Of a DNA stretch of 64,000 nt, positions 8,913 through 35,250 are shown one piece after another. Below the pieces are notes generated by a model, which was not told the DNA's origin, did no database searches, and worked only from the letters and a program-made list of their open reading frames with translations. A program made the position numbers and the translations under genes. The DNA is from a bacterium (GTDB taxonomy: Bacteria > Zhuqueibacterota > Zhuqueibacteria > Residuimicrobiales > Krinioviventaceae), in assembly GCA_963674595.2 (NCBI GenBank), contig CAXXFV010000036.1:15496-79495 (forward strand), written 5' to 3'. Numbering within the stretch: position 1 is the first letter of the stretch; every line of letters begins with the position of its first letter.

Positions 8913-8918
8913 ATTTAG

Positions 8919-10874
8919 TTATATATGTAAAATTAAATATATAAATCTGGCGGATAAAGCCACCGCCATAGCAACAAATATTGTAATTAATGTGGCAAAA
9001 ATCGTTTTTTTAGTTCCGATTTCTTTGATTAAAATTCCCAGAGTTGATACACAGGGAATATAAAATACCGTAAAAAGGGTAAATGTAAAAATTTGAATAT
9101 TTGACATAACCGTTGAAATATCTGTGGTGTCAAGTGCCTGAAAAAGCATGAGCATGGAAAGTTCTTTACGTAAAATGCCGAACACCAGTGTTGTGCCTGT
9201 TGCTTTGGGAAGGTCGAGCACAAATGTTACGGGGCGAAATATTAAATTAATTATTTGATCAATATTGTACCATTCTGCCAGGCTTAAAACTATACTTCCG
9301 ATAATCAATAATGGCCATGCAATATAAATAAAGTCTTTAATTCGAAGCCATGTTTTGGCAAAAATGACTTTTATGGACGGCATTTGATAGGCCGGCATTT
9401 CAAGGATCATCCCCGGAATATCTTCGGGAAGTAATTTTGAAAGAATTGTTCCGACCAGTGATATAACAACAATATTGAGCACATAAATAAACAAAGCTGC
9501 CGTGCCGCCAAGATAAAATCCAACAAGTCCCATAATGATTGTCATTCTTGCAGAACAGGGGATAAGTATGGATACAACCGAGGCTATGAACCTGTCCCGG
9601 GAACTGGGTAAAATCCGCGTTGCCATAATGGCCGGCACACTGCATCCGTATCCCAGCATACCGGGAATAACGGCTGTTCCATGAAGACCGATTTTGTGCA
9701 TAAATGTATCCATCAGATAGGCTATTCTCGGCAGGTAACCGATATCTTCTATAATAGAAAGCCCGATTAAAAACGGAAGTAAAAACGGTAATACAATGGC
9801 CGTGCCGCCCAAAATTCCCTGAACACTGCCGCTGACCATTTGAAGAATTAACGGATGCCCGGAAAGATTGTTTTGCAAATACGCAAGAATATAATCAATA
9901 CTGCTGATTATGGGTTTTTCAATATATGAACCAAAGGAAAAAACCAGATTAAAAAAGACATAGAGAAAAACTCCCATAAATACATATCCCCAAAAGGGAT
10001 GCATTAAAACATCATCTACTTTGTCTTTAAAATATGTTTTTGGCCTTTTAATGACGGCTGCTTTTTCAAAAATATGCATGGCCAGTGAATGGCGTTCTGA
10101 GGAGATTATCTGGTCAGTGGGCTGTCCATGATCTGATTCGAGTTTATTTTCAATTTGTAAAATTTCCGGATTTTTACTGTCCGGGGGTGGAAAGAGTCTG
10201 TTGACAAAATAAGGGTCTTTTTCCAATATTTTGATGGAGCATAGTCTTGTTTTTATATTTGGAAAAGTTTGCAGGGCCTTTTCCGAAATGATGTGGTTGA
10301 TTTTTTCTATACTCTGTTCAACATGTTTACTAAAATTTAAATCACCGGTGGTAATATTTTTCTTTTTTGACAATGTCAAAGCTTTATCAAAAAGTTCTTC
10401 AATACCGGTTCCTTTTTGTCCGATCGTTTTTACAATCGGAATGCCTAATGTTTGGCTTAAAATATCCTCATCAATGGATATACCTTTGCGCTGGGCTTCA
10501 TCCATCATGTTCAGGCACAAAATCATTGGAATGTCGGTTTCTAAAAGTTCTATTGTCAGTTCAAGACTTCGGCTAAGAATTGAAGAGTCAACAATGTTGA
10601 TGATGACATCAACTTTTTTATCCAACAGGTATTTTTTGCTTTCTTCTGCTGCCTGGTCAAATGCTATTAATGAATAAATTCCGGGCAGGTCGACAAGGTC
10701 AAAGGTTTTCCCTTTAATGTTTACGTGGCTTTCCGTAAAAGTAACCGTGGCACCGGGAAAATTTGTAGCAATAGAACGGTATCCGGCAACATGATTAAAA
10801 ATTGTACTTTTACCACAGTTGGGCTGTCCGATTAACGCAATTCGTAAATGCTGTGATTCTGGTGAATGAGCCAA
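8919..10874 (-). CDS. feoB: ferrous iron transporter FeoB
   Basis: G1 GQPNCGKS, NFPGATV, DLPGIYS and NMMD motifs; membrane domain with GYGCSVPA, IPCSAR, FYIPC. Confidence 0.95.
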   Translation of the reverse strand: MAHSPESQHLRIALIGQPNCGKSTIFNHVAGYRSIATNFPGATVTFTESHVNIKGKTFDLVDLPGIYSLIAFDQAAEESKKYLLDKKVDVIINIVDSSILSRSLELTIELLETDIPMILCLNMMDEAQRKGISIDEDILSQTLGIPIVKTIGQKGTGIEELFDKALTLSKKKNITTGDLNFSKHVEQSIEKINHIISEKALQTFPNIKTRLCSIKILEKDPYFVNRLFPPPDSKNPEILQIENKLESDHGQPTDQIISSERHSLAMHIFEKAAVIKRPKTYFKDKVDDVLMHPFWGYVFMGVFLYVFFNLVFSFGSYIEKPIISSIDYILAYLQNNLSGHPLILQMVSGSVQGILGGTAIVLPFLLPFLIGLSIIEDIGYLPRIAYLMDTFMHKIGLHGTAVIPGMLGYGCSVPAIMATRILPSSRDRFIASVVSILIPCSARMTIIMGLVGFYLGGTAALFIYVLNIVVISLVGTILSKLLPEDIPGMILEMPAYQMPSIKVIFAKTWLRIKDFIYIAWPLLIIGSIVLSLAEWYNIDQIINLIFRPVTFVLDLPKATGTTLVFGILRKELSMLMLFQALDTTDISTVMSNIQIFTFTLFTVFYIPCVSTLGILIKEIGTKKTIFATLITIFVAMAVALSARFIYLILHI

Positions 10875-10877
10875 TTT

Positions 10878-11114
10878 TTAAACTCCGTCCTGTAAAACAT
10901 GAATATGATGCGCCATACCGCGACCGAGGGCGATGTGAATGTTATGAACGATTATTAAAATAGGCCCACCCAAGGGTCCGCCACGTTTTACATATACTTT
11001 ATCACCAATGTGAATCCCCAATTGATTCAGTCTATGCCTTACGCCCCAACCACCGTCGATTTGTAATACAGTGACAGCGGTTTCGGGTTTTATTTTATCC
11101 AGTGAAATGTTCAT
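10878..11114 (-). CDS. feoA: FeoA family protein (start placed at ATG 11114)
   Basis: RLNQLGIHIG..GPLGGP..IALGRGMA SH3-like signature; directly upstream of feoB. Confidence 0.9.
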   Translation of the reverse strand: MNISLDKIKPETAVTVLQIDGGWGVRHRLNQLGIHIGDKVYVKRGGPLGGPILIIVHNIHIALGRGMAHHIHVLQDGV

Positions 11115-11616
11115 CAACTTGCCTGTCCTTAAAGCTAGGATGGTGCTTATTAAGACAATCATTACATCCTAATACACCGTTACCATATTGCCCACAGTTT
11201 TTAAAATGAGTAAATATTATTTGCCAGTTATGTGGACATTTTTTTATAAAATTTAAAAAATTTGCCATTGAATTTAATGATTCACGACTAATAATATGTT
11301 CCAGTTTACAAGCTTCCTGTTCCGCTTTTTCAGGCTCAACATCGAGAATATTTACAAGCCAATCCTTAATAATACGATGTGTTTTTTCCAAATCTTTAGC
11401 TAATTGACGTCCCAGGGTTGTCAGGGTAACGTGGCCGTATTGTTCATGGGAAACAAGTTCTTTTTTAACCAACTGGTTCATAACCAGTGAAACACTTGAT
11501 CTGGTAACACCACGCCGGTCGGCAATGTCTTTAACTCTTGCCACTTTATTTTCTTTTTCTAAAGCGTGAATGACTTCAATATATTCTTCAGTTGTTGTGT
11601 CATGTGAAGAAATCAT
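11095..11616 (-). CDS. DtxR/MntR/TroR family metal-dependent repressor (start placed at ATG 11616)
   Basis: EEYIEVI, ARVKDIA..GVTRSSVS HTH and EACKLEH metal site; GGAG RBS before 11616; Cys-rich tail. Confidence 0.88.
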   Translation of the reverse strand: MISSHDTTTEEYIEVIHALEKENKVARVKDIADRRGVTRSSVSLVMNQLVKKELVSHEQYGHVTLTTLGRQLAKDLEKTHRIIKDWLVNILDVEPEKAEQEACKLEHIISRESLNSMANFLNFIKKCPHNWQIIFTHFKNCGQYGNGVLGCNDCLNKHHPSFKDRQVDEHFTG

Positions 11617-11628
11617 ATAAACTCCAAA

Positions 11629-11663
11629 GTTTGGTGCGTCAAACATTGTTTGGTGTGCAAATT
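11629..11663. promoter_or_regulatory. tandem imperfect palindromes, likely operators of the DtxR-family repressor
   Basis: GTTTGGTGCGTCAAAC (11629-11644) and GTTTGGTGTGCAAATT (11648-11663), 19 bp apart and adjacent to the RBS. Confidence 0.65.
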
Positions 11664-11738
11664 TAATAACTTTTAATATATAATGCAATAATTAATTATT
11701 GTGAAAATTGTCATCTTAATTTTATAGCCGACTTTTAC

Positions 11739-17791: not shown

Positions 17792-18977
17792 TTATCGTAT
17801 TCGTGTGACCTTTTGTGTTGTGATATTATTTCCTGCTTTGAGTACCAGTATATATAACCCACTGGGAGTGGGTTGTCCGGCATTGTCCAGACCGTCCCAT
17901 GAAGAGGTGTAACTGCCGGCACTTTGGTTTTCGGTTACCAGGGTTTGAACAGTACGTCCTGTAATGTCGATAACGCTCAATGTTACATCAGAATCGGCCT
18001 CAAGGCGGTATTCAATAGATGTTCCCGGATTAAAGGGATTGGGGTAGGCAGACAGTAATTCTGTTTTATCCGGTAAAACAATATCTGTGGTATTTACAGT
18101 TATCACATGTCTGGATGAGACATTTCCGTTGATATCGATATCTGTAAGGCGGTATAAATAGGTGTTTCCGGATTGGACGTTTTTTATCGGCAAAGTTGTA
18201 TTTAGTTTGGGATGTTTTATTTCCCTGACCAGCCAATTGTGTATGGGTTTTATAACTGGCGATTGTGGCCCAGTTTGTTTCACCTTTTAATTGGCGTTCC
18301 AGAATAAAGCCCAGGTTATCTGTTTCGCTTTCAGTGGTCCAGGAAATATTGATGGCGCCCTTGGCTTGCGAGGCTGTAAAGGAACTCAGTTCGACAGGTA
18401 AGGATTGATCAGAACCGGCATTGATTCCCTGATCCGGGATATCATCATAGGCCCATTCGTTGATTATAAGACTTGAATAGTCGCCTGCCATGGTCAGTTT
18501 TATCCAACCGTAGTGAGTATTGGCACCCAGATTAAATTTAAAACCGGCATATTTTGTACCGGCACCCTGGAATTGGGGGGCTAGGGGACCCCAATTGTCG
18601 TTTAAACGAAAACCACCACCCGGACCGATATAAGCATTTAAATTGAGGGCATTAACCTGACTGTCTGTACCAAGCCAGCCACAGGTGGCTATGTTAGGAT
18701 TGCTAACATGAAAATAGGCCATTACGCTGGGAAAGAAATAAATTTGAAATCTTTCAGTTCCTCCTAAACTGATGGGCTCCACATTTGTTCCTGTAGATAG
18801 AACAATACTACCGCCATTATTATAAACAACGACAGCACCTAAGGCCGGTTGAATGGGTAAAAGTGCTGCACCAGCAGCCACTGGAATTAATAATCGTTTG
18901 TCGAATTTACTTATACGGGCAACTTTGGATTAAGAATCCAAACGTTGCTTTAACGTGTCTCGCGTATCAACATTCAT
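17792..18977 (-). CDS. secreted YGW-motif protein with LPVELSSF linker and FlgD-Ig/T9SS-like C-terminal domain; in-frame TAA and one frameshift
   Basis: GGAGG RBS, ATG 18977: MNVDTRDTLKQRLDS*SKVARISKFDKRLLIPVAAGAALLPIQPALGA (TAA at 18930-18932). YAGFKF..THYGWIKL..EWAYDDIPDQGINAG. An extra base in the T6 run at 18180-18185 joins it to ..YPNPFNPGTSI..WDGLDNAG..SGLY. Repaired length 394 aa. Confidence 0.75.
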
Positions 18978-19175: not shown

Positions 19176-19733
19176 TCACTGTTTTTGCCGCCACATCGTG
19201 GTATCAATAGCAGAAGCCATGTTTTCTATGTTTAATTTGATTTTTAGAAAATTTTCAATTTCCTGTGCTTTTTCCAGTGGCTGGCTTAGAACTTCCGGGT
19301 AAAAAAGAAATAGACACCGTACTTTATTAGCAATCAGCCAATTTTGCACCCGGTTTGTTTGAGCCGAATAGGCCTTTGCCAAATCATCTGAGGAAAGATT
19401 AGCACCTGTTTGATCCAGGTTTTTTAACATTTCTCGCTGAGAGTTGATAATTTGTTCCAGAGGACGTACCATATAAAGAACAGAATACTCTTTTTCTTTA
19501 TCGACATAAGGCAAGAGTTGAGTAATAATTTTAACAGCCTTTCCATCCGCCTCCTGCAACCATGTGTTGTCCTGACGCAGTTTTTTTACTTTTTCGTATT
19601 CGTAATAGCCTCGTGTGTTGTTTTCATCTGCCTGGCGGATATTATCTGTTAATATGGGCAAACCGCATTTTTCCAGCATCTGCATCATTAAAGAGGTCCC
19701 TGAACGCGGAAGACCGGATACAATGGTTATCAT
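19176..19733 (-). CDS. PAPS-dependent sulfotransferase family protein
   Basis: 5'-PSB loop SGLPRSGTSLMMQML, N-x-RGYYE and 3'-PB-like YMVRPLEQIINSQ; ATGA overlap with the upstream gene. Confidence 0.85.
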   Translation of the reverse strand: MITIVSGLPRSGTSLMMQMLEKCGLPILTDNIRQADENNTRGYYEYEKVKKLRQDNTWLQEADGKAVKIITQLLPYVDKEKEYSVLYMVRPLEQIINSQREMLKNLDQTGANLSSDDLAKAYSAQTNRVQNWLIANKVRCLFLFYPEVLSQPLEKAQEIENFLKIKLNIENMASAIDTTMWRQKQ

Positions 19734-21739
19734 AAAAGCCTCCCGATTTCTTTGGCGTAAATTTCTTCCAATATTATCTGATGTTTGATGGCTTCTTCAC
19801 TGTTAAATAGTTTATTCTGGTATAAATATTTCAACATGCGGTGCACCGCTTTAAATCCCGGCACAATTACAGCGCATACTTTAAAAGCTTCTGCAGCGCG
19901 TTCATACATACCCAATCGCGATAAAGCAATTCCCAGATGGTAATGAGCAATGGGATTATGATAGATTAAACCGATGGCGTTTAAGGCATAAGAAGCAGCT
20001 TCTTCGTTTTTACGTTGTCGCAGATGTACCATTGCCATGCCATCATGGGCGATATGGCTGTCCGGATCAATTTCCAATGCTTTTGTAAAGGCGCGTTCCG
20101 CATCCTTTACACGTCCCATTTTCAAATAGGTTTGTCCAATTTGCTGATGTAATACCGGTAATCGTGGATCAGCTTTTTCTGCTTTTAATAAAAAGGTTAG
20201 AGCTTTGTTATAATCTTTTTCTGCGAGCGACAGTGAACCCTGTAACAGATCAAATTGAGGATGATATTTTTCATGGGTTTCTATTACTTTTTCAACAATA
20301 TTCCGGGCTTTTTTGTGATCACCTAATGCCTGGCTGCATTTGGCTAATTGAAAAGCATAACGGGTTTGATCGGAATGTTCCGTATATAGTTTTTCAAGGA
20401 TGGGCAGGGCATTCGAGTACATATTTTTATTTATAAAAGCCCGGGCCAGGTAAAATTGAGATTCATTCAATGTCTGATCGATTGCTTTCTGATGGTCTTC
20501 ATCAGGTTTTTCGACATAACCCAGGGCTATCAATTGCTCCATAGCTTCCTGTTCGGCATAAGGGTCCTGTTGAACGTCTTGTGGAAGCAAACCGCATTCA
20601 CCTTCTACATCTTCCCAGGAAGGTATATATTCAGGTTCGATCTGTTTATCAAAGGCCTAGACCAAAGGTTTACCGTCCATATCAGCTCCAATAGGCAGAC
20701 CATAAAGTGTCAGGACTGTTGGGGCAATATCCAGCAGATTAGCGCCGTAAATACGTTCGTCCTGCAGAATATTAGGGCCTTTCATACATACAATGCCGTA
20801 AGAACGATGCTGCCATGCCGGACCGGCCGGTTCTTTGGGAATGGAGGCAGGACGGAGGTGGTCTGAATGAAAACCATGATCGGAGACGAGTATGACGGTA
20901 ACATCTTCACCTGCCAATTGCAGCAAACGACTCAACATCATATCGTGGTATAAATAACCTCCTGTTACAACTCCTTTATAGAGGTCGAACATATCTTCCG
21001 GTATATGCGGCATACGCGGCGGGTGAAAGTTCATAAAAGCATGGCAAAAATGGTCAATGGCATCGAAATAAACCGCCAGGAAATCCCATTCTTCATTTTC
21101 CAATATCCAGGTAGCTGCAGCCTGAATGCTGGAGCAATCGGCAATAATTTTTACAAGCGATTCAAGTCTTTTGTCTTTATCCTGGTCTATTTTTGCAGCA
21201 TCCGGAACGAAAGGAAGAATATGCGCCTGGGTTAGTTCCTGAGGATGCACACGCAGTCTTTGGAATATTTTTTGTTTACTTTTCGGGTGCACCGTTCCAA
21301 CTGACATGGGCCAGGGTTTATCGATTGGTGCGTTCGCACGTTGGTAAAAATTGGATATACAAATACCGTTTATAGGTTCAGCCGGATGACTGGGCCACCA
21401 TCCTATAACGTTTGTCTTGAAATTTTATTGAGTCAATATATTCCATAGAGCCTTAACTTTTCGGGAAGAGGCCATAACCGGGCGGATACCGGCAGATTGT
21501 GGAGCCGGTTCCGTAAAGTTTATGATACCGTGTTTATCGGCATGCATGCCCGTGGCAATGGATGTCCACAACATGGGGGACATGGGAGGGTCCAGCGTCG
21601 CCAGGTTTCCCATTACACCATGATTGATCAAGCTTTCCAATGCAGGCTTTTGACCGTTATCCAATAATGGGTTAATAATTTTCCAGTCAGCGGCATCCCA
21701 GCCTATAAGCAGGACTTTTTTTGCCAATCTTTTACCCAT
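19730..21739 (-). CDS. type I phosphodiesterase/alkaline phosphatase superfamily domain fused to TPR repeats; two in-frame stops
   Basis: Three track ORFs share one frame, separated only by TAA (21425-21427) and TAG (20657-20659). The spacers translate to conserved-looking [20 protein letters not shown] and [15 protein letters not shown]. Motifs [44 protein letters not shown], then TPRs. Repaired length 669 aa. Confidence 0.82.
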
Positions 21740-21944
21740 TACTGTTCTCCTCACTGTTTGCTTTTTTCTCATCTATCTCAGCGCGTTTTTTTCGCCAAGC
21801 CAGTAATCCTGCCGCACCTAATGCCAAAATCCCCAACGAACCTTCGTATGGAATACTTTTATAAAAATCTTCAAATGTATCATAGGATTGGTTTTCAACA
21901 TTAGGGATAATGGATTCGGGAGTAATCTGTTTTTCGTCACTCAT
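21732..21944 (-). CDS. 70-aa peptide with an acidic Tyr-containing N-region and a PEP-CTERM-like TM-basic segment
   Basis: [24 protein letters not shown]; no N-terminal signal peptide; its stop overlaps the next start by 8 nt. Confidence 0.75.
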
Positions 21945-24289: not shown

Positions 24290-26083
24290 ATGAAAAAAGC
24301 AAAAATTTTTATTTTATGTACATGCGTTTTTGCATTATCAGCATTTTTAGCATGTGATAACGGGGATGAACTGTTATCTTCAGATAATCAGAACAGTTCC
24401 GGGGATGTCGCTGCGGATAACAGGGATGATTATACTTTTACTGTTGATGATGTTCTTGCAAATAACTGTGATAATCATGAAGAGTCAAGCGATTATACCT
24501 GGAACAACTCTCAAGTTATAAATATCGTATTAAATGATAATGGAATTGTTGTTAATGGCAGCGGTACAACAATTAACGGAAGTAAATTAACAATTACGAC
24601 CGGCGGCACCTATAGCCTAAATGGAACTCTTTCAGACGGACAAATCGTAGTCGATTCGGATGATAATAATATTGTAAGGCTTGTTTTAAACGGAATAGAC
24701 ATAACCAATTCCACAAGCGCACCGTTTTATATCAAAAATTCAAAAAAGACTGTAATTGTTCTTAATGATAATACCGAAAATAAGGTTACCGACAAAGCTT
24801 CTTATGTTTATGAAGATACCGCAGAAGAAGAGCCGAATGCAACAATATTTAGTAAAGATGATCTTTCGATATATGGGAACGGAAAATTGGTCATCGATGC
24901 TAATTTTAATGATGGAATTTCCTGTAAAGATGGTATTGTTATTGCCGGCGGTAATATTGAGATAGATGCTGTTGACGATGGAATAAGAGGAAAGGATTAT
25001 CTGGTCGTTAAGGATGGGGATATTTCTATAAATTGTTCCGGGGATGGATTAAAATCAGATAATGATGCGGACAGCGCAAAAGGATATGTTTACATTGAGA
25101 ACGGTAATTTTGATATAAATTCCGGTGCGGATGCTATTTCCGGTCAATCAGATGTTTTGATCTCTCATGGTACGTTTGATCTGACGTCCGGAAAGGGCAG
25201 CAGTGGTTATTCTTCGGGATCCGTCTCTACCAAAGGAATCAAGGCCGGTACCAGTTTGATTATTGACAATGGCGAGCTGACTATTAATTCGAGTGATGAT
25301 GCCGTGCATTCAAATGGAAACCTTGTCATAAACGGAGGTGATATTACCATCTCTTCCGGTGATGACGGTTTACATGCGGATTCTTATTTAGGGGTTAATG
25401 GGGGAGATGTTAATATCCAAAAATCCTATGAGGGCATTGAAAGCCGCATAGCAATATCACTCAATGGCGGTAATATTTTTGTGACATCAAGTGATGATGG
25501 AATTAATGCTGCCGGTGGTGGCGGCTCTGAAGGTGGATGGGGTGGTCCGGGAGGTGGTAGTACCGGCAGTGGTAATTATTATCTTTACATTAATGGCGGA
25601 TATATTGTGACAAATGCAGTGGGGGATGGTTTTGATATAAACGGATCAATTTTAATGACTGGTGGAGAGGTTATTGTTAATGGTCCTACGTCTAATGCCA
25701 ATGGCGCTATAGATTATGACAGGGCTTTTAAAATAACTGACGGATTGTTTATCGCAGCCGGAAGCGCAGGTATGGCCCAGGCACCTGGTACAGCCTCCAC
25801 ACAATATTCTGTTTTAATAAATTTCAGCTCAACTTTCAAGGCTGGTACGTTAATAAATGTACAATCCAGCAGCGGTGAGGAGATTTTAACCTTTTCACCT
25901 TTAAAAACTTTCCGATCACTGGCTTTTTCTTCATCTAAACTCAAATCAGGTTCTACATACAATATTTATTATGGTGGAAGTTCTACCGGTACTGTTAACA
26001 ACGGGCTTTATGAGAACGGCACCTATACCCCCGGAACCAAATATGGCAGTTTTACCATTTCGAGTGTCGTGACAAAAATTTAA
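24290..26083 (+). CDS. Cthe_2159/DUF4353-type beta-helix carbohydrate-binding lipoprotein
   Basis: GGAGG RBS before ATG 24290; lipobox FLA-C; GTYSLNGTLSDGQIVV; repeated DDGI/GDGL/DDAVH rungs; YEGIES. Confidence 0.82.
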   Translation: MKKAKIFILCTCVFALSAFLACDNGDELLSSDNQNSSGDVAADNRDDYTFTVDDVLANNCDNHEESSDYTWNNSQVINIVLNDNGIVVNGSGTTINGSKLTITTGGTYSLNGTLSDGQIVVDSDDNNIVRLVLNGIDITNSTSAPFYIKNSKKTVIVLNDNTENKVTDKASYVYEDTAEEEPNATIFSKDDLSIYGNGKLVIDANFNDGISCKDGIVIAGGNIEIDAVDDGIRGKDYLVVKDGDISINCSGDGLKSDNDADSAKGYVYIENGNFDINSGADAISGQSDVLISHGTFDLTSGKGSSGYSSGSVSTKGIKAGTSLIIDNGELTINSSDDAVHSNGNLVINGGDITISSGDDGLHADSYLGVNGGDVNIQKSYEGIESRIAISLNGGNIFVTSSDDGINAAGGGGSEGGWGGPGGGSTGSGNYYLYINGGYIVTNAVGDGFDINGSILMTGGEVIVNGPTSNANGAIDYDRAFKITDGLFIAAGSAGMAQAPGTASTQYSVLINFSSTFKAGTLINVQSSSGEEILTFSPLKTFRSLAFSSSKLKSGSTYNIYYGGSSTGTVNNGLYENGTYTPGTKYGSFTISSVVTKI

Positions 26084-26254
26084 ATATAGTATGTTATTTT
26101 ATTTTCGAATTACGACGAATTATCGCAAAAATTAATTATAAGCGTTTTGTGACTATATACTAGAACATTTTACATAATAAATATACTAAATCAATGTTAA
26201 GAATTTATTAACTGAAAATGAATTTTTGGTTATAAAACAAAAAAAAGGAATTTT

Positions 26255-26932
26255 ATGCAAACCCTTTTAAACTATGGTTTTGAACAGATTGAGTGGCAAG
26301 TGGCTCTGTTGTCCTTTTTGCTTGCGTTTATCCTCTCCAGTGTTATTGCCATGATCTATGAGCGAACTTTTCAGGGATTGTCCTATTCCCGCGGACTGGT
26401 GCAAAGTATGGTTCTGGGCAGTATTGTTTCGTGCCTGCTTATGATAGCTATTGGAGATAATATTGCCAGAGGTATTGGTATTGTCGGTTCTTTGGCTATC
26501 ATTCGTTTTCGAACCAATCTTCGTGATCCCCGTGATTTGGTTTTTCTTTTTATTTCACTTGGAATTGGCGTTGCCTGTGGTGTGCAAAGTTATATGACGG
26601 CTTTTATCGGGACATTCGTTTATAGCCTGGTCGTTTTTGCTTTTTACATTTCGCCATTTGGCAACCGTAGAAAACATGATGGTTTGGTCCGGTTTCAAAT
26701 TCCACCGGGACCTCATGCCGTATCAGAAATCTCACATATTATGCAGAATTATACCAAAAATTTTGTGCTTGTAACCATGCGAAATGTTGCACAGGGACAA
26801 ATTGTTGATTTTGCCTATCAGGTCAAGTTGTCCCAGCCAAATGACAATCAACGGTTGATTCAAAAACTGGAAACGGTTGATGGAATCAGGGGAATTACCT
26901 ATACAAATCAGGAAGCGACGGTGGAGGTTTAA
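26255..26932 (+). CDS. DUF4956 membrane protein
   Basis: 4-5 TM segments; GIVGSLAIIRFRTNLRDPRD signature; small C-terminal soluble domain. Confidence 0.85.
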   Translation: MQTLLNYGFEQIEWQVALLSFLLAFILSSVIAMIYERTFQGLSYSRGLVQSMVLGSIVSCLLMIAIGDNIARGIGIVGSLAIIRFRTNLRDPRDLVFLFISLGIGVACGVQSYMTAFIGTFVYSLVVFAFYISPFGNRRKHDGLVRFQIPPGPHAVSEISHIMQNYTKNFVLVTMRNVAQGQIVDFAYQVKLSQPNDNQRLIQKLETVDGIRGITYTNQEATVEV

Positions 26933-29020
26933 GTGAGTCTCAACATGTTTAAAAAATGGCCCCAAACTAACAAATTCAACATATTTACTGTTCTTTGGAT
27001 TATTGTTTTTATAAGTATAATATATCTTTACCAAAACTGGCACATTGATAAAAAGTGTATCGGAATCGTTGAATCACGCTGTCATGTTATCGGCGCTCAG
27101 GAATCCGGAACAATTCAAAGCATGCTTACGGATGTGGGTGAGAGTGTTAAAAAAGGCCAGGTTTTGGCCATGCTTAATATTGCGGATTTGAGAATAAATC
27201 TCGACCGGCTTGAAAAGGAACTGTCCGATATTCAGAGCATGGAAAGTTATCAACGAATTCGATATTCACTGATTGCACAAAAAATGGTGCTACAGTTAGA
27301 AAACGAGATGTCTGCATTAATTGAACGCCTGTCACTCATTGATTCAAAAAATACAGAAATCGAAGGATTGAATAATGAAATTAGCAGGTTGGAAAATGCT
27401 GAAAAAGCAGGTCTTGGCCATAGCCGGGATTTAGCGGATTTGATAATTCAACGCGATGCTTTGGTTAGTTATTTAAAAGAGCTGAATAAAGAATTAAAGT
27501 TAAAAGACAATAGTCTGGAACAGACAAGACTATCGCAACAAATTATTAAAGATGCCAATATTGACCATTTAACAAAAACTCTATTATTGGAACATTTTAA
27601 GTATACGGAATCATTACAACGTGACATTTTCAATATTGAACAGCGGATTAACTTGAGAACGATTGTTTCTCCCTGTGACGGCTATATTACCAAAGTTTTG
27701 GCGCGGTCCGGAGATATAGTTGAAGCTTTTGCCCCTGTTTTAGCTGTTGAGGAACAAAAACCATTGTTTTTGGATGTTTATCTTCCTGAAAAATTTAATT
27801 CACAACCCGCACCGGGAATGAAGTTTGATATTTTTTCTGCTCGTGGCAAAGAGTTTAATACCACAGGTATCGTAACCTTTATTCATCCTGGTTTTTCTCA
27901 GGCATCCGAACGAGTGTCTTTCCGGCAGCAAATTTTTTGGGCACGAAAAATTAGAGTTGAATTGGCAAAGGACCATAGTTTAATTCCGGGAGAAGTTGTC
28001 ACTGTTCACCTGAAAAAGAAAAACTGGCTGAATAGTAAATCGGCGAATGTTTACGCCGGCAATTTACAAATTGAAAATGAAGATTGTTTTAACCGTAATC
28101 CGCAATTAGAGAAAATGCAGGTGCCGGCAACGCTGTTACAAGAGTCTCGTTTTGAACCGTCCGGAATTTGTTGGATTCCCGAAACGAACAGTTTTTTAAT
28201 TGTAAGTGATGATACGGGTATTAAAGATTCCGTGAACGACCATGCGGCACGTTTATTTCTCATGGATGAAAAGGGACAGGTCAATGAAGAAACTGTTTCT
28301 GTAATTGGAACCCGAACCGTAAATGACTTGGAAGCAATTGCACCTGTCGGCAATGGCGACTATTATCTTGTATCTTCTCAAAATATTAGTAAAAAGGGAA
28401 AAAGACCGGCAAACCGGGAATTTATTTTAAAATTAAAAAAACAAAACGAAAACTATATCGTTCAGGACAGGGTCCGGTTTCTATCCTTGCTTTTACGTTC
28501 CTATTCTCAGGATCAATTAAAAGCCCTGGGTCTTGATCAGCTTGAAGAGGATGGGAAACCGGTTTTAAATATTGAAGGTGCGGCTTTTTATGAGAATGCA
28601 TTATATTTTGGATTAAAAGAGCCGGTCTCTCCCCAGGGAGCCATTATCTGGAAACTGGATGATGTGGATAGTATTTTTGGAAAAGAAAAGCTGGAACCGG
28701 GACAGTTGACGGTTTTTGGCTATGTCCAATTGCAACAGTTCAATGGCAACCACGCAAGCATTTCTGATTTATTGTTCGATAATGACGGTAAATTATGGGC
28801 TTTGTCAACTATTGCAAACGTGGATAAACAAAATCAAATGGGAGCTTTATATAGAATCGATCGTTTTACAGATGGCCGGCTCGATGCCAAACTGGTTTCA
28901 AGTTTTCCATGTATGAAACCGGAAGGGATATGTCTTTATGGTTCTGACCGGTTTATCCTTGTTTTTGATAATGATGCAGAATGTCCTGAATATTGTTATA
29001 TCAACAGGGAGGAGTTATGA
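26933..29020 (+). CDS. HlyD-type periplasmic adaptor fused to a DUF3616/phytase-like beta-propeller
   Basis: N-terminal TM; lipoyl-like halves GTIQSMLTDVGESVKKGQVL and VSPCDGYITKVLARSGDIV around a long coiled coil; C-terminal FEPSGI, IVSDD, DLEAI, NIEGA, KPEGI and VFDND motifs. Confidence 0.75.
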   Translation: MSLNMFKKWPQTNKFNIFTVLWIIVFISIIYLYQNWHIDKKCIGIVESRCHVIGAQESGTIQSMLTDVGESVKKGQVLAMLNIADLRINLDRLEKELSDIQSMESYQRIRYSLIAQKMVLQLENEMSALIERLSLIDSKNTEIEGLNNEISRLENAEKAGLGHSRDLADLIIQRDALVSYLKELNKELKLKDNSLEQTRLSQQIIKDANIDHLTKTLLLEHFKYTESLQRDIFNIEQRINLRTIVSPCDGYITKVLARSGDIVEAFAPVLAVEEQKPLFLDVYLPEKFNSQPAPGMKFDIFSARGKEFNTTGIVTFIHPGFSQASERVSFRQQIFWARKIRVELAKDHSLIPGEVVTVHLKKKNWLNSKSANVYAGNLQIENEDCFNRNPQLEKMQVPATLLQESRFEPSGICWIPETNSFLIVSDDTGIKDSVNDHAARLFLMDEKGQVNEETVSVIGTRTVNDLEAIAPVGNGDYYLVSSQNISKKGKRPANREFILKLKKQNENYIVQDRVRFLSLLLRSYSQDQLKALGLDQLEEDGKPVLNIEGAAFYENALYFGLKEPVSPQGAIIWKLDDVDSIFGKEKLEPGQLTVFGYVQLQQFNGNHASISDLLFDNDGKLWALSTIANVDKQNQMGALYRIDRFTDGRLDAKLVSSFPCMKPEGICLYGSDRFILVFDNDAECPEYCYINREEL

Positions 29021-30387
29021 GCTCTGCCCCGGATCGATTAATTAGCCGTATAAGAATGCCTAACATTACACTTTTTTTATGTATGTTTTCTGTAATGGGT
29101 TTTCATACGGCGGGTTTTACAGCTCAGGATAGCACTTTGAATATAGCCCGGATTTCTGAAAAGGACTTTACTGATAATAATAACAATGGGCCGGACATTA
29201 TAACAGAAGATCAAGTCATTAAACTGGTTCAGCAAAACAGCCGCCAGTTAAAATGCCTAACAACCAGGGACCAGGTTGAAGAGTTTCGTGTCAAATCAAG
29301 CGGTTGGTTCCAAAATCCTGAGTTGAGATTGAGTGAAGAATCTGATCGTTATATGTCAAATGATTATAAAGAATTGGAACTTGGTTTACGCTGGCGGCTG
29401 CCCAGACCCGGAGAATTGGGTAAAGAAAAACAAAATGCACGGGTACGTTTATGGGAACAAAAAGTTGAAACGATCCGGCATCAGCAGCGAATCATTTTTA
29501 AGATTAGAAAAGAGTATGCAAATGTTTTGATGTATGACGCGATTGCCCAACTTGAAAAACAAAGATTGGACAAAGAAAAAGAAAGACTGGATATTATAGA
29601 TAGTCTGGTAAAATTAGGACAGCGTACCATTGTCTATTCTATCAAGGCAAAAATTTGGGAAGCAGAATCAGAAAATGATTTTGTGTGTGTTAAAAATAAC
29701 CAGGGACTGGCCCGGAGAAAATTAGCCAATCAAACAGGTATTCCGGAAAACGCAATGCTTGCTCCTCAAAATATTCCGGAATACACGCCTGATGTTAACC
29801 AATTAATCGAAATAGCATTTAATTATCGGCCGGAGATGGAACTTGTTGAACAGCGGATTGAACTGGCTAAACGGCAGAACAAATTTGAAAAGTTTAAATT
29901 AATTCCCTGGCCAACATTTATTGAATCATCCTATCACATTGAAGATAAACATGATAAAAACTGGAATGAATTCAGGATTGGTCTGAGTTTGCCGCTTTTT
30001 AACTGGAACCGTGGAAATATTAAGGCAACTAATTTATCTGTACAAAATAAAGAGTGTGAATATGAATCAATTCGTGAAACCATAAAAGATGATGTGCATT
30101 CCGCTTTTATTATTTACCAGGAACTGTTATCCGATTGGCAAAATTTCAAAAAAAGTTCTGATGAATTAATATCAAATGTTGAAAAGTTACTTGAACAAAC
30201 TGAAAATCATGAAACAATTATGCCTGATGAAATTTTGGAAATGGAATTGGCTGTAATCAAAACAAAAAAGTTGTTATGTGAAAAAAAATGCAATCTTTGT
30301 CACGCATTATATGATTTGTATTATGCAATTGGGATTGGAAATGACGGCAATGTAAATAATGAATGGACACGTATAAATGCTCAATGA
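29017..30387 (+). CDS. TolC family outer membrane channel
   Basis: ATGA overlap and GGAGGAG RBS; two helical repeats with NPELRL, RPEM and GLSLPLFNWNRG. Confidence 0.82.
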   Translation: MSSAPDRLISRIRMPNITLFLCMFSVMGFHTAGFTAQDSTLNIARISEKDFTDNNNNGPDIITEDQVIKLVQQNSRQLKCLTTRDQVEEFRVKSSGWFQNPELRLSEESDRYMSNDYKELELGLRWRLPRPGELGKEKQNARVRLWEQKVETIRHQQRIIFKIRKEYANVLMYDAIAQLEKQRLDKEKERLDIIDSLVKLGQRTIVYSIKAKIWEAESENDFVCVKNNQGLARRKLANQTGIPENAMLAPQNIPEYTPDVNQLIEIAFNYRPEMELVEQRIELAKRQNKFEKFKLIPWPTFIESSYHIEDKHDKNWNEFRIGLSLPLFNWNRGNIKATNLSVQNKECEYESIRETIKDDVHSAFIIYQELLSDWQNFKKSSDELISNVEKLLEQTENHETIMPDEILEMELAVIKTKKLLCEKKCNLCHALYDLYYAIGIGNDGNVNNEWTRINAQ

Positions 30388-31150
30388 TGTGAATGATATA
30401 AAAAGATATGAGCTCAAATATCTGATTTCGGAAGAACTTGCCTGGCAAATTCGCGATTATATTAAGAATATTTGCAGCTTGGACAAACATGTGCCACCGG
30501 GATTAAACGGTTATGTTGTTAATAATTTTTATTTTGATACCCCTGATCTAAAATTTTATTATGATACCAAATTTCGCAAATTAACACGCTATAAACCCCG
30601 TGCCCGATTTTATGGTGATCAGGCATCTGATTTTATATGGCTTGAAATTAAATACAGGAACTCGAGCATTATCTGGAAAAAACGTTTCCGTATTCCTGTT
30701 GATTTGTGGCCGAATCTTTTTACAGAACGAGAGTCAAATAATTATGAACCGGTTTGTAAAAACCAGATAGATGCTTTTAATGACCTGGTTTATTGGTACA
30801 ATGCTCAACCGGTTTTACATGTTCGTTATTTTCGTGAGCCTTATGTAACTGAACTTGATGATTATGGCCGTGTTACGTTTGACCGCCGTTTGTGCTGTCG
30901 CTCCTTAAAAGGCTCCTGCGATTTAAAATATGATGAAAGTGATATGATATATTATGATGATCCTGTTACCAGTAAAAATTATGATTCGGTTGTTTTGCTG
31001 GAAATAAAAGTAGAGACGTTAATACCTGCCTGGGCTATAGAGTTGATTCAAATGTTTAATTTAACGCAACGGTCCTATTCAAAATACTGTTATGGGATCG
31101 ATTATTTTATAAACTATAATGAAAATGGACGGATCGCAGTTTTGGCTTAG
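30377..31150 (+). CDS. VTC-domain (polyphosphate polymerase/CYTH-like tunnel) protein
   Basis: KRYELKY, YFDTP, KPRARFY, WLEIK, RVTFD, LLEIK and YSKY motifs. Confidence 0.88.
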   Translation: MLNDVNDIKRYELKYLISEELAWQIRDYIKNICSLDKHVPPGLNGYVVNNFYFDTPDLKFYYDTKFRKLTRYKPRARFYGDQASDFIWLEIKYRNSSIIWKKRFRIPVDLWPNLFTERESNNYEPVCKNQIDAFNDLVYWYNAQPVLHVRYFREPYVTELDDYGRVTFDRRLCCRSLKGSCDLKYDESDMIYYDDPVTSKNYDSVVLLEIKVETLIPAWAIELIQMFNLTQRSYSKYCYGIDYFINYNENGRIAVLA

Positions 31151-31422: not shown

Positions 31423-32595
31423 ATGGCAATTATTACAAACAAATTTTATTCTCAAATGGACTCTGGTGATCTGTTAAATAAAGACCGGATGATGCCGGGA
31501 AATACTAAATTGTCCGTGTCCCAACCCCAAAAAAACTTTTTCATGCAAACGACAAAACAGGGATTTGCAAGAATCCTTAAAACCCTGGCAGCCTTTTCTC
31601 TTATCTTTATTATGATAGCAGGATGTTCAGATGGTGACAATGATGATGATGACCTTGTTGGTAACTGGATAGAGTTGTCAGATTTTGAGGGTGTGCCCCG
31701 GTCGGATGCTGTTGTTTTTACAATTGGTACAAAAGCCTATGTCGGCACCGGTTTTGATGGTGATGACCGGCTTACTGATTTTTGGGAATATGATTCTGAA
31801 CTCAATAATTGGACACAAAAAGAGGATTTTCCCGGAGTGGCCAGGAACGGTGCGGTTGGTTTTGGAGCGGCCGGTAAAGGATATATTGGTACCGGTTATG
31901 ATGGCGCTGAACGGCTGAATGATTTTTATGAATTTGATCCCGATTCAAACACCTGGAAAAGAATTGCCGATTTTGGAGGAACTGCCAGATATGGGGCTGT
32001 TGCTTTTTCTATTGATGATAAAGGCTATGTTGGTACCGGAGATGACGGTAATTTTTTAAAGGACTTTTGGGAGTATGACCCTACCTCTGGTGAATGGACA
32101 CAAATTATCAGCCTAGGAGGAGGAAAACGTCGAGACGCTGTTGCATTTGTCATTGATCGCAAAGCCTATGTTTGTACCGGCATAAACAATGGTGTCTATG
32201 AAAATGACTTTTGGGTTTTTGATCCTTCTACAAATGAATGGACTAAAAAACGCCCGATTTCAAATGCTTCTGATGATGACTATGATGACGATTATTCGGG
32301 AATTGTAGGCATAAATAAGGTTGCCTTTTCTGTAAACGGAAGAGGATACGTCGCTACAGGCGGTGCCGGAACAACAGGAGCAGTTGTATGGGAATATGTC
32401 CCGTCAACAGATTTATGGTACCAAAAAACATCTGTAGAGGCTACGGCACGGATCGAGGCTTTAGGCTTTGCAATAGGAGATTTGGGATACGTTACAACTG
32501 GAAGAAACTCTAGTTACTATTTTGATGATTTGTGGGGATTTAAGCCATATGACGAACAAAAAGACCTTGATAAAACATCTATTGTCGGTCCTTAA
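31423..32595 (+). CDS. Kelch-repeat beta-propeller lipoprotein (alternative start at 31543)
   Basis: Six repeats of R..AV.F.I..K.YVGTG..DFWEYD...W; lipobox IAG-C. Confidence 0.88.
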   Translation: MAIITNKFYSQMDSGDLLNKDRMMPGNTKLSVSQPQKNFFMQTTKQGFARILKTLAAFSLIFIMIAGCSDGDNDDDDLVGNWIELSDFEGVPRSDAVVFTIGTKAYVGTGFDGDDRLTDFWEYDSELNNWTQKEDFPGVARNGAVGFGAAGKGYIGTGYDGAERLNDFYEFDPDSNTWKRIADFGGTARYGAVAFSIDDKGYVGTGDDGNFLKDFWEYDPTSGEWTQIISLGGGKRRDAVAFVIDRKAYVCTGINNGVYENDFWVFDPSTNEWTKKRPISNASDDDYDDDYSGIVGINKVAFSVNGRGYVATGGAGTTGAVVWEYVPSTDLWYQKTSVEATARIEALGFAIGDLGYVTTGRNSSYYFDDLWGFKPYDEQKDLDKTSIVGP

Positions 32596-32682
32596 TCGTA
32601 GATAACATTTTACTCAACACGATTAATGCACAATAAAAGTATAAATTCTCGATGAATTTAAAGCATTTAACATGAGAGAAAT

Positions 32683-34002
32683 ATGGCCTATAACAGTACT
32701 GCACCGGGAAATAACTATAACAAATTAATTATATTGTTTTTATTTATATCCGGTCTGTTTCTAAAAGCTTGTGATCAAAATCCTACAGATATTACACTTG
32801 GCGAAGAATTTGTTGAAACTCAGTCAGACCTGGCTTTAATAGACACATTTTCAGTAAATCTTTCTACAATAATTTTTGATGATGTTGAAACATCCGGCAC
32901 CTCAGAAATTTTAATCGGAAATTATCGTGATGATGTTGTGGGTAGAATAACAAGCCATAGTTATTTTGAACTGGGAATACCCAGTGTTGATGATATTTAT
33001 AATGATGACACCTATGATTCATTGAATTTGGTTATAACCTATAATGGGTATTCATTTGGTGATACAACCCAATATCAAAAAATTTCTGTTCATCAATTAA
33101 CTGAAAATATCAAACTCGATGAGGATGAGATTATTACCAGTAATACTCAATTTAATTATAATCCTGCCCCGATCGGTTCTATTATTTATACTCCGGTCCC
33201 AAACGGAACGGTTGATACACTCGCTATCAAAATAAGTGATGAAATTGGTTTGGAATTGTTTGAAATGTTAAAAGATGATTCGGAAACGTTGACCGAAAAT
33301 GAACTATTTAAAAATTATTTTCATGGTTTGGCGTTGATTGCCGATGAAAATTATAATGGTGCTATTGTTGGATTTAATGCCAGTTCGGTTGATGCGAATC
33401 TTGTCTTGTATACGACAAGAACATCCCCAAGTTTAGAACGAATTAATTATAAATTTGGATTAAGCGACACAGACCAGCAATTTAATAATATTATCCATGA
33501 TTTTACATCAACTCAATTTAGTCTTTTAACAGAACAAAGAAACGAGTTACCATCTGTAAATAGCAATGGGATGTCTGTTTTGCAGGGCGGAATTGGTCTG
33601 GCAATACGGGTAGATTTTCCATACTTGAAAGAGATCTTGCTCAATGAGCATGGTTTTGTTATGAAAGCGGAACTTGCCATCAGTCCACTGCAAAACAGCT
33701 ATAACGATTCTGACCTTCCTTCAACATTAAATATCTGTGCTGTTGATAAGCAAAATGAAGAGATTACTGTTACTATTTCATCATCAACACTTTCAATTGA
33801 TGAGCTTTACAATGAAGATACAGAATATATTTTCGATCTCACGGAATATTTAAATTATGATCTAAAGGACTCTTATATAAATCCGGAGAATGGATTTATT
33901 ATAACACTGCCCTCTGAAAGCCAAATATCATCTTTTGAGCGGTTGATTGCAGATGCCAAAAATAACAAACCTAAACTTTTAATTTATTATTTATCTTATT
34001 GA
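32683..34002 (+). CDS. DUF4270-like acidic lipoprotein
   Basis: Lipobox LKA-C; IDTFSV, GNYRDDVVG, YDSL and FKNYFHGLAL motifs; typical Kelch-DUF4270-OMP gene order. Confidence 0.7.
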   Translation: MAYNSTAPGNNYNKLIILFLFISGLFLKACDQNPTDITLGEEFVETQSDLALIDTFSVNLSTIIFDDVETSGTSEILIGNYRDDVVGRITSHSYFELGIPSVDDIYNDDTYDSLNLVITYNGYSFGDTTQYQKISVHQLTENIKLDEDEIITSNTQFNYNPAPIGSIIYTPVPNGTVDTLAIKISDEIGLELFEMLKDDSETLTENELFKNYFHGLALIADENYNGAIVGFNASSVDANLVLYTTRTSPSLERINYKFGLSDTDQQFNNIIHDFTSTQFSLLTEQRNELPSVNSNGMSVLQGGIGLAIRVDFPYLKEILLNEHGFVMKAELAISPLQNSYNDSDLPSTLNICAVDKQNEEITVTISSSTLSIDELYNEDTEYIFDLTEYLNYDLKDSYINPENGFIITLPSESQISSFERLIADAKNNKPKLLIYYLSY

Positions 34003-34014
34003 GATCTGTCCATT

Positions 34015-35250
34015 ATGAATAAAAAATATTTCATTGTGCTTTTTTTTGCATTTTTTACATTTTGTGTGGTTCATACGTCAAAGGCACAATTTACAAATTC
34101 GGTTTACTCAATGTATGGGATTGGACAAATAATTGATAACGGTTTTGGCGTCAACAAGTCTCTTGGCGGTACAGGAATCGCTTTTCAAACCGGACGAACT
34201 TTTAATTATTTAAATCCTGCATCGTATCTGGGAATTCCAACCGGTTCATATAATATGGAAATAGGTGTCGTTGGAATTTTGAACAGATCCAAAAACACAA
34301 AAACTTTTCAAACTGTTAGTAATATTAATTTCAGCCATTGTTCTGTCGGTTTGTGTTTTACGGACAAATGGGCATTAACTCTTGGTATACTTCCCTATAG
34401 TATGGTTGATTATGAAATATATTCCAGTGATCAAATTGAGGGTGAACCTGTTTCATTTGAAAAAAAATATACGGGAAGCGGTGGACTCTCTAAATTTTTT
34501 ATGGGAAATTCATTTAAACTATTTAAAGGTTTGGCCGTCGGTTTCAACACATCTTTTATCAATGGGCCAATTTCCCATTCCGAAATTGCGTTAAGCAGCG
34601 GCGGTTTTTCAGGATATGAGCTTGTGAATGATTATACGGCCAATGCTTTTTATTTGGATTATGGTGTTCAATACTCTGTTGATAAGGATGATTGGCAATA
34701 TACGATTGGTATGGTTTATGGCCCGGGTAAAAAGTTGAATACCATAAATAATTTAGAGTTTACCTATAACGATGAAACGACATATCTAAGGGAGGATAGC
34801 TCCATATATGCTATCAGTATCCCGGAAAGTTTCGGTATTGGTTTGGCTGTTAAATATAGTTATCATTTTCGGGCCGGAATTGACTACAAGTGGAACAGAT
34901 GGTCTGATATAAATTTTTCAAATCCGAATTTTGATACAAAAAACAGCAATCGATTTTCATTCGGTATGGAGTACGTTCCCGGTGATTATAGCGTCTGGTA
35001 TAAGAGGTTCTTTTATCGGTTTGGTGCGTTTTATAAAAATTCATATCTTGAACTGGATAATAACCAAATCAATTCTTATGGTCTTTCTTTTGGTCTTGGT
35101 CTTCCCAACAGAATTTTGAGTGATTTAAATATGTCTCTGGAATATGGACAGGAGGGAACAACCGATAACAACCTGATTAAAAATCATTATTGGATGTTGG
35201 ACGTCAGTTTTTCTGTTTCAGAGTTTTTCGTAAAACGTAAAAGAAAATAA
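34015..35250 (+). CDS. outer membrane beta-barrel, FadL/PorV-like family
   Basis: Signal peptide; SVYSMYGIG, NYLNPAS, GILPYS..DY and GSGGLS motifs; amphipathic strands. Confidence 0.78.
   Translation: MNKKYFIVLFFAFFTFCVVHTSKAQFTNSVYSMYGIGQIIDNGFGVNKSLGGTGIAFQTGRTFNYLNPASYLGIPTGSYNMEIGVVGILNRSKNTKTFQTVSNINFSHCSVGLCFTDKWALTLGILPYSMVDYEIYSSDQIEGEPVSFEKKYTGSGGLSKFFMGNSFKLFKGLAVGFNTSFINGPISHSEIALSSGGFSGYELVNDYTANAFYLDYGVQYSVDKDDWQYTIGMVYGPGKKLNTINNLEFTYNDETTYLREDSSIYAISIPESFGIGLAVKYSYHFRAGIDYKWNRWSDINFSNPNFDTKNSNRFSFGMEYVPGDYSVWYKRFFYRFGAFYKNSYLELDNNQINSYGLSFGLGLPNRILSDLNMSLEYGQEGTTDNNLIKNHYWMLDVSFSVSEFFVKRKRK

Follow-up and report, generated by a model that had tools for sequence, protein, structure and literature searches.

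A conserved cassette linking a VTC-type enzyme and a DUF4956 protein to a tripartite duct, with a possible role in polyphosphate export

What passes through an envelope-spanning duct when no pump is encoded beside it? The question is raised by four adjoining genes in a 64,000-nucleotide stretch of a Zhuqueibacterota genome (assembly GCA_963674595.2, contig CAXXFV010000036.1, positions 15,496 to 79,495), called here the window. They encode a DUF4956 membrane protein, a periplasmic adaptor fused to a beta-propeller, a TolC-like outer-membrane channel and a VTC-type triphosphate tunnel enzyme. A sequence-only reading of the window had proposed that they make polyphosphate and export it without a pump. 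We found that the four genes stay together as a unit, and that in fold their products correspond to a tunnel enzyme, a membrane protein, an adaptor and an exit duct. The cassette is real and conserved, and apparently undescribed. That it couples the synthesis of polyphosphate to its export is, judging from the sequences, probable, if only just.

Linkage of the four genes

The adaptor-propeller fusion family gave 121 matches among 8000 scored candidates and 187 representatives at E 1e-30 or better, and the closest named homologues of the window adaptor are mostly labelled KSB1. A search for related loci with the single protein gave no match, and a broad alignment (set A1) gave no conserved stretch of use. 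An alignment search, keeping one genome per species, provided 60 related loci. These are titled KSB1, Caldithrix, Neomarinimicrobiota, Ignavibacteriaceae, Cytophagia, Deferribacteres, Myxococcota and other Deltaproteobacteria, Bryobacteraceae, Spirochaetales and Bdellovibrionales. They were mapped in six frames with profiles built from the same loci. Loci were dropped from the linkage tests where the contig ended, and one (L105) is a lone propeller.

In each of the 53 testable loci DUF4956 precedes the adaptor, in 52 of them directly; in the remaining one (L048) some genes, including an LTD gene, are inserted. The channel gene follows the adaptor in 55 of 56 testable loci, and a VTC gene is present in 52/53, a lenient count, since any locus with VTC was counted and seven short loci without it were dropped. 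All four core genes share one contig in 43/60 loci. The position of VTC varies, after the channel in 37 loci and before DUF4956 in 15. Such linkage is far from chance, and its possible lack of conservation, named by the sequence-only reading as one of the points on which the proposal could fail, was not borne out in these many phyla. Long open reading frames (ORFs) in five loci (L085, L089, L091, L095, L101) raised the possibility that DUF4956 or VTC is naturally fused to the adaptor there, which was rejected, as these are upstream frame extensions with no second domain.

In the window the DUF4956 stop abuts the adaptor start (0 nt between), the end of the adaptor gene and the ATG of the channel gene share 4 nt, and the channel and VTC genes overlap by 11 nt, as the positions and tight packing first proposed had it (Table 1). 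Each core gene has one copy in the source genome. The Cthe_2159-type lipoprotein gene does precede the cassette, as proposed, but it is separated from DUF4956 by 171 nt and such a gene is near the cassette in only 2/52 loci, so that it was not kept as a core part. Promoter and terminator scans were both at chance level (34 found against 29.8 +/- 5.4, and 6 against 5.1 +/- 2.2).

Table 1. Features of the cassette region in the window, with the profile matches that support them.
Feature	Position	Strand	Evidence or remark
Cthe_2159-type beta-helix lipoprotein	24290-26083	+	PF14262 E 4e-93; lipobox read from sequence; net charge -39
DUF4956 membrane protein	26255-26932	+	PF16316 E 3.8e-11; presumed inner-membrane component
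Adaptor-propeller fusion gene	26933-29020	+	HlyD_D23 E 9e-10; DUF6929 E 1.3e-6
Periplasmic adaptor (MFP/HlyD) part, residues 1-362	26933-28018	+	TIGR01730 E 4e-19
Fused five-bladed beta-propeller (YjiK/SdiA-regulated, phytase-like), residues 388-695, optional	28094-29020	+	
TolC/CusC-like outer-membrane factor, dedicated subfamily	29017-30387	+	OEP E 4.2e-17
Cytoplasmic VTC-type triphosphate tunnel enzyme, predicted polyphosphate polymerase	30377-31150	+	PF09359 E 2e-34

In the window, the cassette has no ABC, RND or MFS pump gene as a neighbour; the nearest MFS-like match is at 60198-62585 on the minus strand. The claim that the operon has no pump thus holds here. We also surveyed the two nearest same-strand ORFs on each side of the cassettes. 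In this set 102 ORFs had no profile match, of which 98 were domain-scanned, 3 assigned by BLAST cluster and 1 left unscanned; in GC-rich loci some of the ORFs taken may not be genuine. The 98 scanned included no RND or MFS pump, and no pump family turns up repeatedly next to the cassette. One locus (L053) has a sodium:solute symporter two genes downstream. In the source genome each of the 7 RND pumps has an adjacent adaptor of its own, and no EmrB-type protein was above cut-off.

A survey of 167 genomes of the phylum, which include some of the 60 loci (two of these, L076 and L104, come from the same genome), found the window adaptor family in 23, all 23 with VTC. VTC of any type is present in 95/167. 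A second type of cassette, found in 50/167 genomes (e.g. loci L136-L152, L159-L166 and L168-L172), has a protein of ~355 residues, then VTC and DUF4956, with no channel gene (17/20 sampled), and accounts for most VTCs other than those of the window type. Its first protein, which Pfam mostly fails to recognise, is a distant adaptor (HHalign probability 99.6%; PDB matches MacA and EmrA) and lies <600 bp from VTC in 49/54 places. The tip motif by which adaptors bind TolC, RLS, is given as RxxxLxxxxxxS (PMC3391258); it is kept in 14/16 second-type adaptors against 5/56 in the window adaptor family. From these sequences, the second type would borrow a general channel, and the window type would combine an altered tip with a channel of its own.

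The pair also occurs further afield. In the phylum of locus L050, VTC was found in 28/151 sampled genomes, with a three-gene cassette in 13/20 places taken from 31 listed. In two other places a DUF2490 gene adjoins a more divergent VTC-DUF4956 pair in the place of the adaptor (L174:7480-8331, L175:5270-5935). DUF2490 proteins are beta-barrels and might provide another way out through the outer membrane. Two plasmid-collection records from Bacillota, which have a single membrane, carry CotH-VTC-DUF4956 with no adaptor annotated.

Predicted roles of the components

When the PDB was searched with a profile built from 54 VTC sequences, Vtc4, Vtc2 and Vtc3 were the only matches below E 0.4, Vtc4 leading at 1e-18, and no other tunnel enzyme was found in this search up to E 10. 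Nine residues of Vtc4 are reported to bind triphosphate and Mn2+ and to be required for polyphosphate, namely K200, R264, R266, K281, Y359, R361, E426, S457 and K458 (10.1101/2023.01.27.525886). Their counterparts in the window VTC are K14, R75, R77, K92, Y151, R153, E209, S235 and K236, so 9/9 are kept; S235 is present in 49/54 sequences and the other eight in 54/54. These residues alone cannot tell a polymerase from a hydrolase, because the hydrolase AtTTM3 is reported to have the same tunnel centre and to make no polyphosphate (PMC4641920). The same report describes three glutamates, absent from Vtc4, with which hydrolases bind the second metal that activates water.

Only one of these three glutamates (E12) is found in the cassette enzyme. 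The two other positions are R10 and K211 in 54/54 sequences, matching Vtc4 R196 and K428, and K101 is likewise basic in 54/54, matching Vtc4 K294. For the N-terminal ExExK motif, the alignment to Vtc4 R196-K200 is one that we take from motif spacing. The same pattern of residues is also present in 35-36 of 37 second-type VTCs. The window protein has 257 aa, with Pfam VTC spanning 9-243 and no hydrophobic segment; the SPX domain and the fused three-helix membrane domain of the eukaryotic catalytic subunit are both absent. Overall, it looks like a polymerase, with one difference (E12), and the profile match, the catalytic residues and R10/K211 favour the earlier suggestion of a Vtc4-type polymerase over a standard triphosphatase. 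A role of VTC as a replacement of PPK1 was unsupported, with PPK1 present in 37/95 VTC genomes and in 18/72 genomes without VTC. The source genome has no PPK1 match and carries one PPK2.

DUF4956 is the best conserved part of the cassette, with 65% mean column identity. The AlphaFold2 (AF2) model (predicted local distance difference test, pLDDT, 81) has five predicted helices (14-132) followed by an ACT domain (143-218), an architecture that matches the MgtC family. PF16316 was matched in 55/55 aligned members, and MgtC (PF02308) in 33/55 below its cut-off, with the window protein at 23.1 bits against 31.4. The only Pfam matches of the members are DUF4956, MgtC and, once, DUF493. The ACT domain matches many ACT folds, including the C-terminal domains of MgtC (2lqj, 7qa5), and a search of the ESM Atlas returned only DUF4956 clusters. 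MgtC proteins are regulators of other membrane complexes.

R84, R86 and R146 are found in 55/55 members, all of which also carry R or K at positions 90 and 93. By the positive-inside rule, these basic residues are predicted to face the cytoplasm, where they would be compatible with a polyanion path; for comparison, the mouth of the VTC channel is reported to carry K/R rings (10.1101/2023.01.27.525886). In fold searches with the DUF4956 model no Vtc1-like chain was listed and no match reached E 0.001, a result that is uninformative because the ACT domain filled the match lists and the membrane part was barely probed. The predicted complex of VTC with DUF4956 (alignments A4 and A3) scored 0.01 against a mark of 0.32, in a run whose controls did not fold, and was counted neither for nor against the pairing. 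A pore role for DUF4956 is the weakest step of the export model.

The adaptor has an N-terminal anchor helix, a lipoyl domain, a long hairpin and a beta-barrel (model pLDDT 87). Its best Foldseek matches are EmrA 8zal and 4tko (VIA Z 16.8 to 4tko), so the modelled fold is EmrA-like. As for the channel, its profile matches MtrE, CusC, OprM and TolC in the PDB. The channel subfamily is present at E 1e-50 or better in 25/167 phylum genomes, the same 25 as this VTC subtype, and three further genomes have weaker matches. The expected co-occurrence of VTC and DUF4956 with a particular HlyD/TolC subfamily is therefore seen, with strong channel matches only where this VTC subtype occurs.

The closest fold to the propeller is YjiK 3qqz (VIA Z 20.4, root-mean-square deviation (rmsd) 3.0, 223 aligned), followed by glutaminyl cyclases and the Ca-activated nucleotidase 2h2n (Z 17.6, rmsd 3.7, 236 aligned). 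Eight acidic residues (E408, D426, D427, D465, E467, E548, E664, D679) and three basic ones (R491, R495, K662) are invariant in 69/69 sequences, which suggests a site for metal and phosphate. This domain is absent from L040-L042 and L044, and in L159 and L163 it is a separate SdiA-regulated gene right after DUF4956. Such separately encoded relatives match Pfam SdiA-regulated and Phytase-like, and the window propeller matches Phytase-like below cut-off. SdiA-regulated proteins are described as homologues of CarP, a calcium-homeostasis propeller of Pseudomonas (PMC10574481). A stand-alone propeller of this family (L105:2785-3666) was also found after a cNMP-binding/HEAT-repeat gene, on a short contig with no adaptor or VTC.

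Exported partners and the cargo of the duct

Partners were counted within 6 kb of the core in the 52 loci with sufficient flank. LTD proteins are near the cassette in 27 loci, CotH kinases in 20, ATP-grasp proteins of the PPDK_N type in 12 and Cthe_2159 in 2, with at least one of them in 41. By eye, a signal peptide or lipobox is present in 5/6 PPDK_N proteins inspected, and also in most CotH and LTD proteins inspected. Apparently exported PPDK_N proteins (signal peptide or lipobox, C-terminal ATP-grasp domain), seemingly nucleotide-binding enzymes, are seen beside the cassette at L052:6657-8750, L075:2241-4379, L095:5554-7617, L098:5410-7650 and L104:4363-6519.

In the phylum set, CotH is found in 89/95 VTC genomes and in 18/72 genomes without VTC. 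CotH kinases use ATP. The sole CotH of the source genome lies on another contig (L156:6782-9085, minus strand) and has a signal peptide, CotH, LTD and a C-terminal sorting domain; it gave no PDB match in a single-sequence search. This protein is a candidate client of the cassette in trans. Many genomes of the phylum (G076-G093 and others) carry at least 10-12 CotH paralogues, an unexplained expansion of exported kinase-like proteins.

Close homologues of the Cthe_2159 lipoprotein are present in 19 phylum genomes, 19/19 with VTC. Five adjoin the cassette, and three of these five genomes belong to the six VTC genomes without CotH. We consider it an optional accessory. Cthe_2159 binds calcium, and the window lipoprotein has such a negative net charge (-39) that any binding of polyphosphate would need cation bridges. 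Binding of Cthe_2159 to cellulose and polygalacturonic acid has been reported (10.1101/401869). A second Cthe_2159 gene of the source genome (L157:6976-8874, minus strand) is fragmented, and a stop interrupts its match.

The sequence-only reading had suggested metal capture or mineralisation as a possible purpose of export. Since the dominant partners are exported CotH kinases, LTD proteins and ATP-grasp lipoproteins, and CotH co-occurs so often with VTC, a role as phosphoryl donor fits at least as well, and metal capture is possible without standing as the main purpose. An exported product that feeds exported enzymes and binders is the reading that fits the partners best.

In the export model, synthesis replaces the pump, and the four gene products would form a single envelope-spanning machine. 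Judging from its active-site residues, cytoplasmic VTC would extend a polyphosphate chain with the gamma-phosphate of ATP. An oligomer of DUF4956 would dock VTC on the cytoplasmic side, letting the chain cross the inner membrane past the conserved arginines. From there, if what is established for adaptors and channels is a guide, it would pass by way of the adaptor and the TolC-like trimer through the periplasm and the outer membrane. A divalent metal is probably bound by the periplasmic propeller, whose task may be to load the chain, to gate it or to trim it. Outside, judging from co-occurrence, the polymer would serve exported CotH kinases and ATP-grasp lipoproteins, which need high-energy phosphate outside the cytoplasm, and in the source genome possibly the Cthe_2159 lipoprotein too.

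Several observations weigh against this model. The nine catalytic residues are largely common to the hydrolase AtTTM3 (PMC4641920), and the third site-2 position, E12, is acidic in 54/54 sequences where Vtc4 has T198. DUF4956 resembles MgtC and no characterised channel, and its membrane part has no informative fold match. The window adaptor does not have the canonical RLS tip, like most of its family. One locus has no channel gene (L085), and another has no VTC nearby, although VTC is found elsewhere in that genome (L086). An adjacent adaptor is missing in 22/71 second-type VTC places, and neither adaptor type is found in 25/95 VTC genomes, some of them fragmentary. In 1/60 loci (L100) a MacB-like ABC permease lies directly upstream, and several MacB-like permeases of the source genome have no adjacent adaptor. 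Finally, the genome counts are counts among kin, which overstates their independence, and no P value is claimed.

The unpaired permeases make a pump partner in trans conceivable. The adaptor and channel would then serve a conventional pump encoded elsewhere, and VTC-DUF4956 would be a regulatory pair or deliver its product to the periplasm only, a division that would also suit the MacB-like gene of L100, the many VTC-DUF4956 pairs without adaptor and the regulatory role of MgtC. It accounts less well for DUF4956 directly preceding the adaptor in 52/53 loci and for two distant adaptor families both being tied to VTC-DUF4956, and both the lack of a recurring pump family and the RND pumps of the source genome, each with its own adaptor, speak against it; we consider it quite unlikely. 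A small cargo is unlikely as well, with a modest chance of being right. Here ATP, another nucleotide or a very short oligophosphate would be exported as phosphoryl donor along the path of DUF4956, adaptor and channel, with VTC as the loading or energising subunit. The commonest partners (CotH and PPDK_N-type) are exported nucleotide-using families, E12 differs from Vtc4, and the propeller fold resembles the Ca-activated nucleotidase. On the other hand, the basic residues of the Vtc4 chain exit appear to be kept (R10, K101, K211), which fits a polymer, and the known synthase-HlyD-TolC systems are described as exporting polymers.

The machine could also work inwards, taking up polyphosphate or other phosphoanhydrides through channel and adaptor, with processing by the propeller and breakdown or conversion to ATP by VTC. 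The phytase-like matches of the propeller and its separate relatives would agree with this, as would a source genome with PPK2 and no PPK1 match. But adaptor-TolC ducts are established export conduits, the second metal site of hydrolases is largely missing, and the partners are exported kinase-like enzymes and no phosphate transporters, which leaves import very unlikely. Protein secretion similar to type I, with VTC hydrolysing NTP to export the neighbouring CotH, LTD or Cthe_2159 proteins, would be in line with the large exported proteins that flank the cassette in 41/52 loci and with the long adaptor hairpin. The Sec-type signal peptides, lipoboxes or C-terminal sorting domains of these neighbours, however, give them other routes out, and VTC is polymerase-like and not hydrolase-like; we regard such secretion as most improbable. 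Hardly any room is left for other explanations.

Surroundings in the window, known systems and significance

Other genes of the window were also considered. Downstream, 31423-35250 (plus strand) encodes a kelch-repeat protein, a DUF4270 protein and an outer-membrane protein, a Bacteroidota-like trio; the outer-membrane member scores 323 bits with the NCBIfam BamG profile, above its cut-off of 250. These genes were rejected as cassette parts, as they clustered with none of the other loci. On the minus strand, a phosphodiesterase-TPR cluster (19176-21772) is apparently broken into short ORFs (115, 216, 286 and 185 aa); frameshifts in a pseudogene or errors of assembly might account for this. At 17792-18881 (minus strand) two ORFs overlap in different frames (271 and 163 aa, the second ending in a FlgD/C-terminal sorting domain) and are probably pieces of a single exported protein that a frameshift has split. 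An iron-dependent repressor, FeoB and a TonB-dependent receptor at 6525-11688 (minus strand) make up an ordinary iron-uptake locus, unlinked to the cassette.

Among known systems, the yeast VTC complex (Vtc4/Vtc3/Vtc1; 3g3q, 7ytj, 8i6v) has in common with the cassette the tunnel enzyme, the nine catalytic residues and, apparently, the basic exit residues. A coupling of synthesis to translocation is proposed for yeast, as it is here, and both have a small membrane partner with conserved basic residues (10.1101/2023.01.27.525886). The cassette differs in its enzyme, without SPX or the fused membrane domain and with E12 in the place of T198, and in its partner, which is MgtC-like with an ACT domain and for which no link to Vtc1 was found in searches that barely probed its membrane part. 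Its path is also lengthened over two membranes by the adaptor and the outer-membrane duct. AtTTM3 and E. coli YgiF share the tunnel fold family, the site-1 glutamate and the substrate-binding basic residues, as reported for them (PMC4641920), but in the cassette VTC two of their three water-activating glutamates are replaced, by R10 and K211.

The closest architectural precedent is BgsA/BgsB/TolC of Sinorhizobium meliloti, in which a polymer synthase takes the place of the pump within a tripartite duct. Glucan synthase, HlyD protein and TolC are reported to be all required for polymer production, and that paper cites similar cyanobacterial cellulose systems (PMC13438883). Like the second cassette type, that system may take its channel from another locus. 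Its synthase is described as a membrane-integral glycosyltransferase that makes glucan, whereas in the cassette the enzyme and the membrane protein are separate, the predicted product is inorganic, and no glycosyltransferase is found in the core. The common arrangement, a putative polymerising enzyme linked to an adaptor without a pump, is seen in 52/53 loci and for 49/54 second-type adaptors. EmrAB-TolC, MacAB-TolC and type I secretion systems share the EmrA-like adaptor fold and a channel of the TolC/CusC/OprM family; the cassette thus has the adaptor and the outer-membrane factor of a tripartite pump, but no linked ABC, RND or MFS transporter, and differs further in the propeller fused to the adaptor and in a hairpin tip that departs from RLS.

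Accessory genes for CotH, a polyphosphate polymerase and DUF4956 are reported beside surface-polysaccharide genes in Gram-positive pel loci (10.1101/768473), and in NELoc-2 of Clostridium perfringens (PMC2879425). These loci have the same VTC-DUF4956 pair with CotH, but the passages that describe them name no adaptor or outer-membrane factor and give no export model. Nucleotide-sugar or glycosyltransferase genes also precede the cassette in L179 and, upstream of DUF4956, in L059, L061 and L063, as in the pel loci, hinting at a link with surface polysaccharide modification. The literature searched, mostly open-access main texts, contained no description of the cassette or of the export model, and no bacterial polyphosphate exporter was found in it; the abstract on a Haloferax polyphosphatase mentions no related protein. 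Bacterial polyphosphate is described in the works consulted as the product of cytoplasmic kinases.

If the cassette makes and exports polyphosphate, it would represent a new class of tripartite exporter, driven by polymerisation. This would give a function to DUF4956 and to the bacterial VTC proteins, which are found in more than half of the phylum genomes and in a part of those sampled from another phylum, and would have a bearing on extracellular phosphorus cycling and calcium-phosphate chemistry. The cassette offers a possible source of phosphoryl groups for secreted CotH kinases. A broader proposal is that of a widespread and dedicated secretion of polyphosphate, in which an MgtC-like oligomer is a new polyanion channel, the polymerase drives transport, and the polymer is an extracellular phosphoryl or energy currency for CotH and ATP-grasp proteins. 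We put it forward as tentative and rather doubtful. Should it be true, it would explain what fuels kinases outside the cytoplasm and indicate that the eukaryotic VTC enzyme has a bacterial origin.

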